Part shown: piece by piece, positions 10,717-50,475 of the stretch | Position numbering within the stretch: position 1 is the stretch's first letter | How the letters are laid out: each line of letters begins with the position of its first letter | Source of the DNA: a virus | DNA: 64,000 nucleotides | Strand: one strand, 5' to 3' | IMG/VR virus record: IMGVR_UViG_3300020020_000003 | Location: 1,075 to 65,074 of that record | Position numbers and translations under genes: made by a program | Notes under the pieces: model-generated | What the model saw: the letters and a program-made list of their open reading frames with translations, nothing else | Told to the model about the DNA's origin: nothing | Database searches by the model: none

Positions 10717-11402
10717 GTATCAAAGCTTTACGAGATGGTGGGCAGTAGCACGGTGGAATAGGAGGTACGTGTTGGTTACACCGGCGCAATGACAAGGGGT
10801 CATAGTTGTAGACAACTTATCATAGTTGTACGAGTTACCGGGCTGTAGTGGGGCTGTCTAAGCTGGTTTAAATAGGTAGTCGAGTAGGATAGGGTGAGGA
10901 ACGGCAAATGGGGAAATCTAGGAAATATGAATTACAATGGTGTAGGGATGAATTCTAAAAGAATACCCGGCAAATCTGGAAAAGGGCTGGCACGGGGAAA
11001 TATTTTTCGCCGGGGGGCCCCCTTTAAGGGGAGCGTGTCAAACGTGTCATGTAGTTTGCAACCTCGAACGTGACAACAGAAAAGAGATGAGCTCTTACTT
11101 AGTTATATATTTATATATTTCTATTATATATATAATTAAAGAAAACAAGCACTTAACCCCCGAATGTCCACTTATCTTCTATATTTATCGTTTTTATATG
11201 GGATTTTCGCTTGTCTTCCTCGAGTATTCATGTTTATCTCTTTGTTTTTTCTTATTCTTGGTCGAGCTAATTTGCCCCTAGGCCAACTTTCGCCTGACGC
11301 ATTTTTCATTTGCATCCCACAACGTTCTATGCTACGGTAGCAAATGGAGCGCGTCATCAGTTTCCTAAGGGAGACCAGTGCTCCAGTTAGAGTAAGTTCG
11401 GA

Positions 11403-11712: not shown

Positions 11713-11782
11713 TCGCAAGTAGTGTAACGGAAGCACCAGCTCCTCCAAGGCTGAGATCGGTTCGACTCCGACTTGCGAGCCA
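11713..11782 (+). tRNA. atypical 70-nt tRNA-like gene (anticodon most simply TCC, Gly; Trp-like features)
   Basis: acceptor TCGCAAG/CTTGCGA, encoded CCA, D-arm GTGT/GCAC, TTCGACT T-loop; lacks N26, 4-bp T-stem, C33, G73. Confidence 0.6.
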
Positions 11783-12474: not shown

Positions 12475-12656
12475 TGAAGTAGCTCCCATTGTGCAGGTGT
12501 CAGATCAGGAAACACGACCGCGAGCGGCTCGTCGTTATTGAGCAACCACTCGCGATAACGTTCAAACTGATTTCGCGTTAAGTCTAATGACTTCCCATTG
12601 ACGGTGACCACGTAGTGATCGTCGTCAATTTCAGCTGATGTGCGAATCGTACGCAT
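12471..12656 (-). CDS. small phage protein, paralog of 8118-8357
   Basis: YREW...FPDLTPAQWELL; GAGGA RBS. Confidence 0.6.
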   Translation of the reverse strand: MRTIRTSAEIDDDHYVVTVNGKSLDLTRNQFERYREWLLNNDEPLAVVFPDLTPAQWELLQ

Positions 12657-12676
12657 TTTCAGTTCCTCTGCTATGC

Positions 12677-12704
12677 AAAAAAGGGGGACGCTTGCGCGTC
12701 CCCC
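12677..12704 (-). terminator. strong intrinsic terminator (GCAA tetraloop)
   Basis: minus strand GGGGGACGC-GCAA-GCGTCCCCC-TTTTTT. Confidence 0.8.
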
Positions 12705-12721
12705 GATTTGCGGTGTGTCGC

Positions 12722-13108
12722 TTACTTGCGGCCGTGGAACTTGCGCCAGGCGTAGAACTCCTGGCTGGCGTTGGACACGTTCCAGTTGTTCTCCACTGCG
12801 TGATCACGGAGGTGCTTCACCGTCGGGTGAGTACCAGCTGCGACGAGCTCATCGCAGGCGTTCCACACCTGCCAGCACTTGCCCCCTTCACGCGGGTACT
12901 TCTTGGTCTTGACAACTTCTGCGGGGGCAGCGACTTCCGTCGCTTCCGCAGGGGTTTCCACCGTTTCCGTGGGCGCAACGGGCGCTTCCGGGGTTTCCAC
13001 CGCTTCCACGGGGGTCTCCACCGTTTCCACGACGGTGGTGGAAATCTCCGACTCCACCACAGGGGTGGCGACGGTGACGGACTGCGACTTGCGATTACGA
13101 CGAGACAT
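12722..13108 (-). CDS. probable DNA-binding protein: acidic VETP-repeat linker plus KfrA_N-like C-terminal domain
   Basis: own promoter, GGAG RBS and terminator; CDELVAAGTHPTVKHLR...ASQEFYAWRK resembles the KfrA N-terminal HTH. Confidence 0.65.
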   Translation of the reverse strand: MSRRNRKSQSVTVATPVVESEISTTVVETVETPVEAVETPEAPVAPTETVETPAEATEVAAPAEVVKTKKYPREGGKCWQVWNACDELVAAGTHPTVKHLRDHAVENNWNVSNASQEFYAWRKFHGRK

Positions 13109-13184
13109 AGCGATAACTCCAGCTTATGTTTGACGCGCGCGGCGGATGCAGGGCGCGGAAACAGCAACACGCTGCTTCCCCCTA

Positions 13185-13213
13185 TATATGCGACTTGCAT
13201 GCCTAAGATGCAA
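13185..13213 (-). promoter_or_regulatory. putative sigma70-type leftward promoter
   Basis: minus strand TTGCAT-N17-CATATA. Confidence 0.55.
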
Positions 13214-13429
13214 CGGCGGTAAACGCATACCAGGTATGCCCCCCGGGGTGAACACCAAAACCACCTCAATTATCCACCGAGGCGGCAGGTCGTTCGCACG
13301 TTTTCCCATTTTTGATTCGGTCCTCTAAATATCTTCACCCCTAAAATTCCTCTCCTTGATTTTCACTTCTTGCGCGCGCCCTAAAACTGAATCGGTCATC
13401 TGACCCCAACAACCCAGAAGGCTCCGTCC

Positions 13430-14005
13430 ATGCAGACAGACCCCATCCCACTCCTAGACCCCACCTTCCTTATCCTTAGATGTCACCCACGCGACACGAT
13501 TCCCCTTTCAATCCTCCATCCCTATCTCTACTGCCCGACTACATCTATTCTCATCCGTAAAGGACCCTCCCGCACACGAACCCATGTGGTGTTCCCTATT
13601 CTCCCTTCGTTTCTTTTTCTTCCGACCCATCTCCCACTCCCAACTCCAGCCCACAAACTCCATGCGATGAAACGACCCCACTCACATCCCTCCCACCCCC
13701 ATCTTTTCTCCATCAATAACCCCCTACCTGACACCATCCCCAGACGACCTCCAACATCTTTCGCTTATTGTTTTCTTTCTGAGATAGAGGTTATGACATC
13801 GCAACACCATATCCTTTCTCTTCCGGCTGACTTTCCCTTTACGATTGGTTCTCGTGTTGAGGTCACTGATGGCCTCCTTGCTGGCGCGCAAGGAATAATT
13901 ACAAATATTAGGACAAATAGAGATATCACATTGAAAATCCAGCAACATTTGGGATGGCAATTTTCCACTTGCATCGTTAACGCGAGTGTGTTACGCTCTC
14001 TGTAG
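13430..14005 (+). CDS. NusG/RfaH-family paralog (NGN + KOW), candidate late antiterminator
   Basis: FLILRC...LYCPT...R...V.FPILPSFLF resembles NGN; FTIGSRVEVTDGLLAGAQGII is a clear KOW motif. Confidence 0.65.
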   Translation: MQTDPIPLLDPTFLILRCHPRDTIPLSILHPYLYCPTTSILIRKGPSRTRTHVVFPILPSFLFLPTHLPLPTPAHKLHAMKRPHSHPSHPHLFSINNPLPDTIPRRPPTSFAYCFLSEIEVMTSQHHILSLPADFPFTIGSRVEVTDGLLAGAQGIITNIRTNRDITLKIQQHLGWQFSTCIVNASVLRSL

Positions 14006-14154
14006 GTGTTCAAGTTGTGCCTCTCTTTAACTTTCAGGTGTGTTCAGCCGCAAGCGCACACCGACCCCTGCGATGTAGTGGACCCCTTCACACATCGCCT
14101 CGCCTCTGATCCCGCTCAGAGGCACTGTTGAAGTCATGCGTGCAATTGAACACC
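14005..14154 (+). ncRNA. putative 150-nt multi-stem RNA element
   Basis: closing helix GGTGTTCAA/TTGAACACC plus inner hairpins GGTGTG/CACACC, GCGATGT/ACATCGC, GCCTCTGA/TCAGAGGC. Confidence 0.5.
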
Positions 14155-14216
14155 AACCTGTTTTCTTTGTACCCTTGAGTACCACGACCTCTAAGATTCG
14201 CCAATCTACTACTTCA

Positions 14217-14250
14217 ATGACTGGGCCCCCTGAGAGCCCAGTCATTTTTT
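14217..14250 (+). terminator. intrinsic terminator just upstream of terS
   Basis: ATGACTGGGC-N9-GCCCAGTCAT followed by TTTTT. Confidence 0.75.
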
Positions 14251-14269
14251 ATGACTATATATCAGCACC

Positions 14270-14779
14270 ATGAGCACACCCTCCCAACCCTCCTCTATTC
14301 AGGTGAATCTGACTCCCGTTAACCTTACTGCGGAGTTGCAGAAGGTTCACTTGTCCGATTCCCTTACTCGTGATCAGCACGCTGACTTACGCACGTTGAT
14401 ACTGGACGCTGCGGCGGCGATCGGTATGGATGGGTCCGGGCGTGATGGTCTCCTTGGTTATTTGAAATACGCAGCGAGCACCTTCCCGAAGCAGTATCTC
14501 CAGGTTATTGCTAAGGTGCTTCCGTTACAGATTGATTCCAAGTCCACGATCAACGTGATCGAGCATGTGAACATCGTGTCGGTACCTTCTGATCGATACA
14601 TGCCTCGCCAGGCTTTCGCTAACGAGAAAGTTGAGGTTCCCAATCTAGCTAACAATCTGGTAGATATTACTGATCTGAATCTTGACGCCACCTCCGACGC
14701 CATTCAGACCATCGAGGATGTGTTGAACAACCCCACTCCTGTTTCACTCGATGTCACACTTCCAGACGATGCTGCCTAG
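14270..14779 (+). CDS. terS: terminase small subunit (probable)
   Basis: DGLLGYL..AA...PK.Y...IAKVLPLQI motif of alphaproteobacterial phage TerS-like proteins; position before TerL. Confidence 0.6.
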   Translation: MSTPSQPSSIQVNLTPVNLTAELQKVHLSDSLTRDQHADLRTLILDAAAAIGMDGSGRDGLLGYLKYAASTFPKQYLQVIAKVLPLQIDSKSTINVIEHVNIVSVPSDRYMPRQAFANEKVEVPNLANNLVDITDLNLDATSDAIQTIEDVLNNPTPVSLDVTLPDDAA

Positions 14780-14781
14780 CA

Positions 14782-15063
14782 GTGAGGTTCCGTCCTGGAG
14801 ATCTACCAGAAGGTGACCCCTCCCAGCCCAATACTCCCGTCGAGTGGGAAGACAATGCAATCTCCAATCTCTTTGCTTACCTCAGCCACAAGCTTACTCC
14901 TTCCTGGTGTCAGACACCCGAGCACTGGACGTCCCGACTCACCCAATACCTGTTTACGGACTGTCCTTGCTGCATTCTGTTTCGTGGTATCTCTGTTGGT
15001 CTATTACTGGGTCTACCGCTTGGTATGGTCTTGGTTATCTTAATCGCCTTGGTTACAAAATGA
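14782..15063 (+). CDS. small membrane protein with CPCC motif
   Basis: C-terminal hydrophobic helix; fills the gap between terS and terL. Confidence 0.45.
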   Translation: MRFRPGDLPEGDPSQPNTPVEWEDNAISNLFAYLSHKLTPSWCQTPEHWTSRLTQYLFTDCPCCILFRGISVGLLLGLPLGMVLVILIALVTK

Positions 15064-27204: not shown

Positions 27205-27822
27205 ATGGCTAGTGAGAAATTAGTTCTGCCTGCACCCTGGCAGTTGCGTGATAAGATCATCGATGGGGCTGTCGTCAATAGGCTTTCATTTCAAGCGTTT
27301 GCGGACTATATTGTCGAAGCGCAAAACATGAAGAAGCCGAAGACGTTCGAGGGTCGACTGCGTAGATTACGTCTTGCTAAACAGGTATCTTATTACGTCA
27401 ACGGCTCTACGACTCCAATTGGGGTCGATGACGTAATAGAAATGCCTATCCCTGATGCGCGTATGTTGACGACATATCTTGATAACGACGAAGGGGAGGC
27501 TGGTAAGATTATTCGGGAAGGCGATGGGATTTCTACATCTATCGTCTATGAGCTTGGTACTCCGATTCCTGTACAGGGAAAGGATCCAATAACTGAACTC
27601 GAGTTCCTTGCTAAGACTTATGGGGATATCGAAGATGTTATGTCAGCTCCCGATAGTATTAACCAGACAGCAATGTTGATTTCAACGATAGGTAAGCCAC
27701 CTGGAATGTTGGCTCTCCCATCATGGGCTACATCACAAATCACTGTGGCCGACGGTGTCACGATCGCTAAACTTGTGACTCCGCGTTTTTTAGGGTCGCC
27801 GGACGAGTCGCAGACCGAGTAG
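27205..27822 (+). CDS. tail assembly chaperone (G-like)
   Basis: between tube and tape measure; slippery site near the 3' end. Confidence 0.75.
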   Translation: MASEKLVLPAPWQLRDKIIDGAVVNRLSFQAFADYIVEAQNMKKPKTFEGRLRRLRLAKQVSYYVNGSTTPIGVDDVIEMPIPDARMLTTYLDNDEGEAGKIIREGDGISTSIVYELGTPIPVQGKDPITELEFLAKTYGDIEDVMSAPDSINQTAMLISTIGKPPGMLALPSWATSQITVADGVTIAKLVTPRFLGSPDESQTE

Positions 27823-27965
27823 AAGAATATCGTTACTATTCCGCCTCGGCCGGAGATCTACGACCTCTGACTATCGGTCAGTTGACTACTCGAATTAGTA
27901 ACTTCTCTAAAGTTCATCAGCGAGAGATCCGTAACAGGATTCTTTTAGCCGGAGGCAAGCCGTAG
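27786..27965 (+). other. programmed -1 frameshift extension (GT-like chaperone)
   Basis: in-frame T-TTT-TTA heptamer at 27786-27792; -1 frame open to TAG 27963-27965, which overlaps the tape-measure GTG. Confidence 0.8.
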
Positions 27966-49202: not shown

Positions 49203-49850
49203 ATGGCCTACGGTCGAGTTGTTATATCATCCGGGCATGGTAAGTATGTGCGCGGAGCAAGCGGTATTATCGATGAGGTAGATGAAGCTCGACATGTGGT
49301 CGAGCAACTTGCCACCGAGTTAGATAATCGAGGTGTTGAGGTCGATATTTTCCACGACGACACTTCAAAGGATCAAAGTACCAATCTCGATACCATTGTT
49401 GAGTATCATAATTCGCAACAACGCGATTTAGACATATCAGTTCATTTCAATGCGTTCGAACAACGCGAAGGCCCTGTGGGAACTGAGGTTCTCTACGTCA
49501 CACAGGCGGCACTCGCTGGCCAGGTCAGCGCCGCCATAGCCGCATGTGGCTTCATTGATCGTGGTGCGAAGAAGCGCACCGATCTCTACTTCCTCAACAA
49601 TACATCGAAGCCTGCGATCTTGATCGAGGTGTGCTTTGTAGACAGTGAGGCTGACTGCAACATCTATGGTGGCAGTCTTGATGCGATCTGCAATGCTATT
49701 GCTACCGTTCTTGGGGGTCCAATTACTGATGAAGAAGAGGGTGAGGAAACCCAACCTCCGATTCAGGCTGCGTTACCCCGGGTCGATATCGAGGTCTCGG
49801 GCGAGGTGCTGATCTACGTCAACGGTCAGCAAGTTGGAACCAAAGGATAG
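49203..49850 (+). CDS. endolysin, N-acetylmuramoyl-L-alanine amidase (Amidase_3)
   Basis: ISSGHG, ISVHFNA, GTEV, PAILIEVCFVD Zn-amidase motifs. Confidence 0.92.
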   Translation: MAYGRVVISSGHGKYVRGASGIIDEVDEARHVVEQLATELDNRGVEVDIFHDDTSKDQSTNLDTIVEYHNSQQRDLDISVHFNAFEQREGPVGTEVLYVTQAALAGQVSAAIAACGFIDRGAKKRTDLYFLNNTSKPAILIEVCFVDSEADCNIYGGSLDAICNAIATVLGGPITDEEEGEETQPPIQAALPRVDIEVSGEVLIYVNGQQVGTKG

Positions 49851-50434: not shown

Positions 50435-50475
50435 AGTAAGCGCGGCACTGCGGGAGCGTGCTGCGCTTACTTTTT
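50435..50475 (+). terminator. intrinsic terminator ending the late operon
   Basis: AGTAAGCGCGGCAC/GTGCTGCGCTTACT then TTTT. Confidence 0.8.

Follow-up and report, generated by a model that had tools for sequence, protein, structure and literature searches.

The locus analysed here raises the question of how transcription reaches a late operon of a phage whose first gene, terS, begins only 19 nucleotides (nt) after the end of a strong intrinsic terminator. It lies in a 64,000-nt stretch of DNA (the window, to which all coordinates refer) from the virus record IMGVR_UViG_3300020020_000003, and it consists of a gene for a divergent NusG paralog, a structured RNA with covarying base pairs, the terminator and a short conserved motif, which follow one another in this order ahead of terS. 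As specialised NusG paralogs such as RfaH, LoaP and UpxY are switches for long bacterial operons, we asked what the paralog and the RNA might do for the operon that they precede.

The paralog gene is the first rightward gene, as the initial annotation of this DNA had stated; its neighbor at 12722–13108 is on the minus strand.

13430–14005, plus strand: gene of a specialised NusG paralog, 191 amino acids (aa), assigned by homologues, profile and fold

With its high content of Pro, Leu, His and Thr, this open reading frame (ORF) could initially be taken for non-coding DNA. It nevertheless has 20 metagenomic proteins as full-length homologues, which are 38–88% identical to it and share clear conserved blocks. 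A family profile search of 1.8 billion cluster representatives returned 102 proteins, 81 of which were used for an extended profile; across both domains, the latter matches Escherichia coli NusG with an E value of 7.5e-12 (query residues 19–154) and RfaH with an E value of 1.7e-10 (query residues 2–149). The deeper alignment of 81 sequences raised the mean predicted local distance difference test score (pLDDT) of the AlphaFold2 model from 64.5 to 86.6, with a value of about 94 across residues 140–191. For the first model, the 30 top-ranking structures from Swiss-Prot were without exception NusG proteins.

The predicted structure comprises an NGN domain (approximately residues 10–125), which carries a Pro/His-rich insert of low confidence at about residues 80–110, and a KOW barrel (approximately residues 132–191). 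The NGN domain superimposes onto that of RfaH (8pen_P) with a Z score of 8.0 and a root-mean-square deviation (rmsd) of 2.8 Å over 91 of 101 residues, and the KOW domain matches those of Thermotoga maritima NusG (Z score of 9.3, rmsd of 1.9 Å, 55 residues) and Spt5 (Z scores of 9.0–9.1); across two domains, the structure also matches Spt5 and NusG. The initial annotation had read the ORF as a NusG-like NGN+KOW gene and had proposed a comparison of its predicted structure and profile with NusG and RfaH; the NGN fold is present, and the fold and profile matches bear the reading out.

The protein is nevertheless poorly captured by curated models. On its own, it reaches no curated cut-off and matches the Pfam KOW models at E values of 0.25–0.27, while a PHROG labelled 'transcription antiterminator' matches its KOW part with an E value of 4.7e-5; seven of ten more distant relatives lack a Pfam match at an E value of 0.01. 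All 21 family members examined match the UpxY model NF033644 weakly (22.1 bits for the window protein, best member at an E value of 3.1e-7), and none of them reaches its cut-off of 100 bits. Seven of the 21 match the curated RfaH model TIGR01955 (best E value of 0.0016) without attaining its required score, and the LoaP family is absent from the NCBIfam matches of these 21 proteins at E values of up to 10. At the position of the FPGY(V/L)F motif of the NusG NGN domain, the window protein has PILPSFLF. Taken together, the profile and fold matches and the failure of the curated models identify a divergent NusG paralog that falls outside the curated RfaH, LoaP and UpxY families, and, judged by sequence and predicted structure, it is a specialised member of the NusG family that belongs to a new, very divergent subfamily. 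Its C-terminal domain is predicted to be a β-barrel, a model that is compatible with RfaH-like fold switching. Across the family, six residues (Cys18, His19, Cys35, Cys114, His173 and Cys181) show no or almost no variation, a pattern that is not usual in NusG proteins and that might point to a metal site or disulfides. GenBank phages, searched by BLAST with the DNA of the region, the window protein and two distant relatives, gave no match; the family is known from metagenomes only.

A gap of 264 nt separates the paralog gene from terS in the window. The region 14000–14275 has a folding energy of −86.8 kcal/mol (z score of −5.2), with none of 200 shuffled sequences being as stable, and the minimum free energy fold contains the multi-stem element of about 150 nt that had initially been described as starting from the stop codon.

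14005–14154, plus strand: multi-stem RNA in the fold of the window's clade, a closing helix around three hairpins, from the stop codon
14005–14020 with 14140–14154: outer helix
14025–14031: P1, paired with the tail
14037–14062: hairpin H1
14070–14098: hairpin H2
14102–14123: hairpin H3
14127–14138: tail, GUUGAAGUCAUG
14066–14140, plus strand: conserved RNA core (H2, H3 and tail), common to all lineages

For comparison, viral and metagenome collections supplied 35 related loci. Only the window's clade or its nearest relatives have the outer helix, P1 and H1, and the gaps are mostly unalignable between lineages apart from the RNA core, the length of which ranges from 75 to 105 nt. H2 consists of a lower stem (GCGRUG/CAYCGC), an internal loop and an upper stem (GUGGA/UYCAC), all three conserved, and a variable apical loop. 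H3 is a long hairpin with compensatory substitutions in its outer and inner stems, and the conserved tail has the consensus GUUAAAGUCRUG.

With a covariance model derived from seven lineages other than the window's, the core of the window is matched at 48.2 bits (E value of 1e-12), the sole match in 64 kb; across 150 fetched loci, the matches of this model lie only beside the paralog gene, with the core occurring once per genome. In the aligned set of 12 distinct sequences, 92.6% of the cells are paired, compared to 83% in shuffles and 37–51% with slid partners, figures that are somewhat flattering since the alignment was fitted to the covariance model. Compensatory changes on both sides are seen in 11 of the 23 pairs, a number reached by none of 500 shuffles. 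The element thus holds as a fold, and its core covaries across about ten lineages. A loose DNA pattern for H2 retrieved 115 viral contigs, of which the covariance model kept only those of the same phage family, and Rfam has no match in 12500–15000 at E values of up to 1. In one lineage, L031, the RNA follows the stop codon of the paralog gene at a distance of 8 nt, and the RNA is therefore probably part of the paralog mRNA, with which it would be co-transcribed.

Two further candidate signals in this interval were rejected. The boxA-like CTCTTTAAC (14023–14031), which provides the 5′ strand of helix P1 and matches the boxA core of E. coli rrn operons, is restricted to the window's clade and lacks conservation across lineages; L010 carries two copies of GCTCTTGA. 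Leader-peptide attenuation by a 45-codon ORF (14136–14273) was discarded as the frame, start and end of this ORF differ among lineages. The ORF starts at an AUG within the RNA tail, crosses the terminator and ends with ATGA on the terS start, a stop/start overlap with terS that is also found in L003 and L013, and not in the other lineages. Lineages with a long gap (L012, L013, L015, L025, L028 and L031) have a second conserved GC-rich hairpin in the interval between the RNA core and the terminator, with the stem GCGGGGACG/CGUCCCCGC and a conserved loop containing ACUUCUACUCCGUUGG; in the window's clade, a related CUUCUACUUC tract is found ahead of the terminator.

Downstream of the RNA, the window carries the terminator and the first gene of the late operon.

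14216–14250, plus strand: intrinsic terminator with stem AAUGACUGGGC/GCCCAGUCAUU, 9-nt loop and U6; hairpin of about −15.5 kcal/mol
14270–14779, plus strand: terS, the first late gene (phrog_11043), with terL next

A consensus scan missed the terminator because of its 9-nt loop; counting both strands, the 64 kb contain no more than six terminator-like sites of comparable strength, this one included. In each of the 11 loci compared, a hairpin of −15.6 to −21.7 kcal/mol is followed by T5–T7 and is located 16–26 nt ahead of the terS ATG (14270 in the window), and the stem sequences differ between lineages yet still pair. The strong terminator that had been placed before terS from the window sequence is thus confirmed, and it is conserved with covariation across about ten lineages. 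The distance between the RNA core and the terminator varies about six-fold, from approximately 40 to approximately 250 nt.

A conserved two-hairpin RNA upstream of a terminator could, in principle, act alone, with H2/H3 being either a cis antiterminator like HK022 put or an attenuator that senses a ligand or a protein, and with the adjacency of the paralog reflecting a shared late function. The tail of the window, GUUGAAGU, has two possible pairing partners, 14025–14031 (P1) and the ACUUCAA that immediately precedes the terminator stem. By hand check, however, the pairing of the tail with the terminator region is not kept in lineages outside the window's clade and was rejected as a conserved switch; the alternative pairing of 14017–14024 with 14118–14125 put forward in the initial annotation fails in the same manner. 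The variable spacing is unlike that of riboswitch expression platforms, and it fits a processive factor better than riboswitch-type alternative pairing. Furthermore, the RNA is found only beside the paralog, and a candidate miniature H2/H3/tail (12.4 bits, E value of 0.007) is present in the gap of locus L153, beside a paralog relative of about 28% identity. We therefore regard an RNA that works by itself as improbable.

The order of a 128-aa ORF (minus strand), the paralog gene, a gap of 186–422 nt, terS and terL holds wherever the fetched loci reach, and the triad of paralog, RNA and terminator, for which a synteny search had been suggested, is present in all related lineages. Relatives of the paralog that are more distant (about 20–30% identity; profile E values of 1e-30 to 5e-5) lie directly before terS genes of two families: in L151, L153, L156 and L158, the relative is directly upstream of a terS of either the GP3_package type or the window's type, L154 probably has the same arrangement, and in L152 the relative precedes an HNH gene of a type commonly found together with terminases. 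A 169-aa ORF upstream of terL in Synechococcus phage Yong-L2-223, the cultured phage closest to this one, was considered and rejected, as it is no NusG paralog (hhalign probability of 0.4%).

Considering (i) the confirmed identity of the paralog, (ii) the covariation of the RNA and of the terminator, and (iii) the position of distant relatives before terS, a functional link between the paralog and expression of the late operon is supported. The account we favor, to which we give a little less than an even chance, is a LoaP-like gate with Q-like logic, in which the paralog and the RNA let the polymerase past the terminator into the late operon. Rightward transcription would start in the control region at 13109–13429, and its first product would be the paralog mRNA, the 3′ part of which would be the conserved H2/H3 RNA. 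Most polymerases would stop at the terminator ahead of terS. Having accumulated, the paralog would bind the nascent RNA and, via its NGN domain, the elongating polymerase, as LoaP does with its leader hairpin, and the polymerase modified in this way would resist the terminator and continue through the 36-kb operon from terS to the endolysin gene. The KOW domain may also aid the start of translation of terS, which has no Shine-Dalgarno sequence, as proposed for RfaH. The steps that we infer here are RNA binding, polymerase modification, read-through and timing. It is also conceivable, if doubtful, that such paralogs constitute a large phage family that has so far escaped annotation, and that the paralog and the dedicated RNA in the 3′ part of its own mRNA form a ribonucleoprotein that, at the head of the late operon, both makes the host polymerase terminator-resistant and starts terS translation; were this true, it would be a third kind of early-to-late switch in phages, beside antiterminators of the Q/N type and phage sigma factors. 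We leave a small share to explanations that have not occurred to us.

Several observations weigh against a paralog- and RNA-dependent passage through the terminator. Because the gene order is inherited within one clade, its conservation is weaker evidence than independent co-occurrence would be. The gap of L153 contains no terminator, and its terS has a Shine-Dalgarno sequence; the pairing of the paralog with the packaging operon is thus broad, with the terminator being confined to some lineages. The apical loop of H2 is CCCC, UUUG, CUCG or GCAA, and not of the UNCG type that is bound by LoaP. The ops element GGCGGTAGnnTG has no match with up to two mismatches on the plus strand of 13430–14300, and the nearest ops-like match, GGCGGCAGGTCG, is at 13281–13292, upstream of the gene. 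An ops-type readout within H2 was rejected: GCGGT of some lineages corresponds to GCGAT in others and the pairing partner compensates, which argues for a base-pairing constraint and not for ops-type base readout. No RNA sequencing run was found to contain the phage, all 24 runs with its DNA being DNA metagenomes. Finally, transcription of the late operon could start at the motif that follows the terminator, which would make read-through unnecessary.

14252–14265, plus strand: 14-nt motif TGACTATATATCAG, between the U-tract of the terminator and terS

This motif is identical or nearly so in seven of nine lineages, inverted in L015 and altered in L031, and it has a single copy in the window and, likewise, a single copy per genome in three complete genomes, each about 70 kb long. 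Candidate roles for it are the start of a leaderless terS mRNA, a loading or pause site, and a protein-binding site. The first of these would entail two transcription units, with the terminator ending the paralog mRNA and its structured 3′ untranslated region (UTR) and the late operon starting at the motif with a terS mRNA that has little or no leader. In that case, the paralog would still act for the late operon, be it as an elongation factor, an anti-Rho factor or a ribosome recruiter, and would be loaded elsewhere or in trans. Such an arrangement would suit a motif that is nearly invariant while the adjoining terminator stems change. It would also suit the distance of 5–9 nt from the CTATAT hexamer of the motif to a terS ATG that lacks a Shine-Dalgarno sequence in seven of nine lineages, in a phage that has GGAG-type sites at many other genes; the two lineages with an inverted or altered motif have a Shine-Dalgarno-like sequence before terS instead. 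A TG one base ahead of the hexamer is, in addition, reminiscent of extended −10 promoters.

The motif, however, contains no TANNNT hexamer on the plus strand, its sole one, TATAGT, being on the minus strand, and the promoter scan, which gave no sigma70-type match anywhere in 12500–15000, is silent at the motif. The latter result agrees with the initial annotation, which had seen no convincing sigma70 −35 element between the paralog gene and terS; its caveat that CTATAT might be a −10 element stands as far as the near invariance of the motif and the proximity of the ATG are concerned, and is weakened by the absence of the plus-strand hexamer and by the inversion in L015. Furthermore, a motif that is found once per genome does not represent a general class of late promoters, and two separate units would leave the covarying RNA without a role. 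We consider this arrangement unlikely, although among the alternatives to the gate it weighs most.

On the other side of the paralog gene, the favored gate would have its starting point in a region with several recurrent elements.

13109–13429, plus strand: divergent control region, probable 5′ leader of the NusG-like gene, with elements that recur across lineages
13157–13179: hairpin
13182–13189: CTATATAT
13225–13239: perfect 15-bp palindrome GCATACCAGGTATGC, abutting CCCCCCGGGG
13279–13292: GAGGCGGCAGGTCG
13309–13333 (degenerate) and 13381–13404 (exact): the two copies of the repeat AAAAnnnAATCGGTCATC

The elements have the same order in most of the ten lineages compared. The AAAAnnnAATCGGTCATC repeat is present in two to three copies per lineage, the last of which is 13–40 nt ahead of the start codon, and no further copies were found elsewhere in the window. 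From their sequence and arrangement, these elements look like operators or a dedicated class of promoter that would time the production of the paralog. GAGGCGGCAGGTCG, which is partly conserved among lineages, is similar to the ops core of RfaH, GGCGGTAG, but has C in place of T6; on the minus strand, it overlaps a hairpin that is followed by a T-run.

Within 13250–13800, the leader and the NGN-coding part of the gene (its first 360 nt) are extremely rich in C and poor in G (C 150, G 36). The skew is −0.52 to −0.64 in all nine lineages, with the KOW-coding part being balanced; it may reflect the Pro/Leu/His/Thr-rich protein, a conserved rut-like RNA for Rho loading, or a combination of the two. 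A composition that resembles Rho-loading sites in every lineage would be in keeping with a general host-takeover or anti-Rho factor, in which case the paralog would displace host NusG on all polymerases and thereby keep Rho off phage transcripts. The RNA would then serve as a 3′ UTR that confers stability or autoregulation, and the terminator would do no more than end the gene. RfaH-type paralogs act largely by excluding NusG and Rho (PMC7819879). Against this, the fixed place directly before terS genes of different families points to an operon-specific role, and a covarying RNA of 75–105 nt exceeds what a stabiliser usually needs, so that a general factor of this kind has, in our view, only a slim chance of being the explanation.

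The operon that the favored gate would serve is laid out as a single block. The window covers the greater part of a viral record that is complete at 71.8 kb and has terminal repeats, and the phage is, by its tail sheath gene, a myophage. By TerL, the cultured phages closest to it are two from Synechococcus (54% identity) and, at 40%, those of the Agrobacterium 7-7-1 group, no relatives were found in 185,579 bacterial and archaeal species genomes, and the DNA runs that contain it come from soil and freshwater sediment. Leftward replication genes (primase, Sak4-like annealase, Cas4-type nuclease, single-stranded DNA-binding protein, DNA polymerase and clamp) lie beside the central control region, and one rightward block contains terS, terL and the genes for the portal, major head protein, tail sheath, fibres and endolysin.

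14270–50475, plus strand: late transcription unit from terS to endolysin (49203–49850); genes end at 49850, closed by a strong terminator at 50436–50475

The terminator after the endolysin gene (50436–50475, plus strand) is very strong, at −25.6 kcal/mol, and probably ends the late unit, within which terminator-like matches are near chance expectation. A stricter scan gave a weaker hairpin-plus-T6 site on the plus strand at 27750–27792 (near 27786), just ahead of an 862-aa ORF at 27965. The initial annotation had also supposed that the phage may use the paralog and the RNA instead of a lambda Q/N protein or a sigma factor of its own. Neither a phage RNA polymerase nor a sigma factor was found among the 24 ORFs scanned with PHROGs, which agrees with this supposition for the ORFs covered, most small early ORFs being outside the scan. 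To the left of the paralog gene are a tRNA-Gly(UCC) gene and a very AT-rich tract of TATATA repeats (11713–11782 and 11080–11140).

NusG- or RfaH-like genes of phages and prophages have been mentioned in passing (PMC7593976, PMC11321410), and we found no experimental study of phage NusG paralogs timing late genes in the literature. New here are the very divergent protein subfamily, the covarying RNA family and the nearly invariant motif. The locus is a compact, testable module of about 1.2 kb that combines a regulator, an RNA family absent from Rfam, a terminator and a conserved 14-nt motif, and natural covariation marks the base pairs to mutate. If the proposed mechanism is true, it would add a class of late-gene control in phages and would aid the annotation of a protein family that is missed by curated domain libraries.

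Among known systems, UpxY of the Bacteroides capsule operons provides the best curated-model match (NF033644), and it too is the first gene of the operon that it serves. UpxY, however, acts on a leader upstream of its own gene, the scores obtained here are far below the cut-off (22 bits versus 100), and no UpxZ-like partner is seen at this locus. The put RNA of phage HK022 is likewise a cis-acting RNA of two stem-loops located ahead of terminators in a phage, but put works without any phage protein, whereas the RNA described here always accompanies the NusG paralog. The resemblance to the lambda Q system (PR′, qut, tR′) lies in the succession of a regulator gene, a short structured and terminated RNA, a terminator, and packaging, virion and lysis genes, as well as in the logic of a delayed switch. 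The protein folds are unrelated, and no promoter was detected here between the regulator gene and the terminator, with the RNA of L031 beginning immediately downstream of the paralog stop codon.

With RfaH and its ops element in Enterobacteria, the system shares an NGN+KOW paralog, to which it is related by a full-length profile match, a first target gene without a Shine-Dalgarno sequence and a long target operon (PMC7819879, PMC7593976). It differs from RfaH in the absence of an ops sequence at 13430–14300 and in the predicted β-barrel of its C-terminal domain, which in RfaH is an autoinhibitory helical hairpin. RfaH, moreover, reportedly has little effect at intrinsic terminators, and its gene is not located beside its targets (PMC7819879, PMC7593976). 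The genes loaP, taA and upxY adjoin their target operons, and the targets of RfaH lack Shine-Dalgarno elements (PMC7819879).

The closest parallel is drawn with LoaP of Bacillus velezensis (dfn/mln operons), a NusG paralog that is also encoded beside a very long operon, at the head of which a small structured RNA precedes an intrinsic terminator, as is the case at 14216–14250 before the 36-kb operon here. LoaP acts on hairpin terminators, the feature to which we liken the present system, and its bypass of a NusA-dependent leader terminator depends on an RNA hairpin in the leader (PMC12691694). Unlike LoaP, the paralog described here is phage-borne and has no match to the LoaP model, its RNA has a core of two hairpins with a variable apical loop in place of a single UNCG hairpin, and this RNA lies in the 3′ part of what is probably the paralog's own mRNA. 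Thus, if the proposed mechanism is true, this phage system would be a second example of a NusG paralog that is recruited by RNA.

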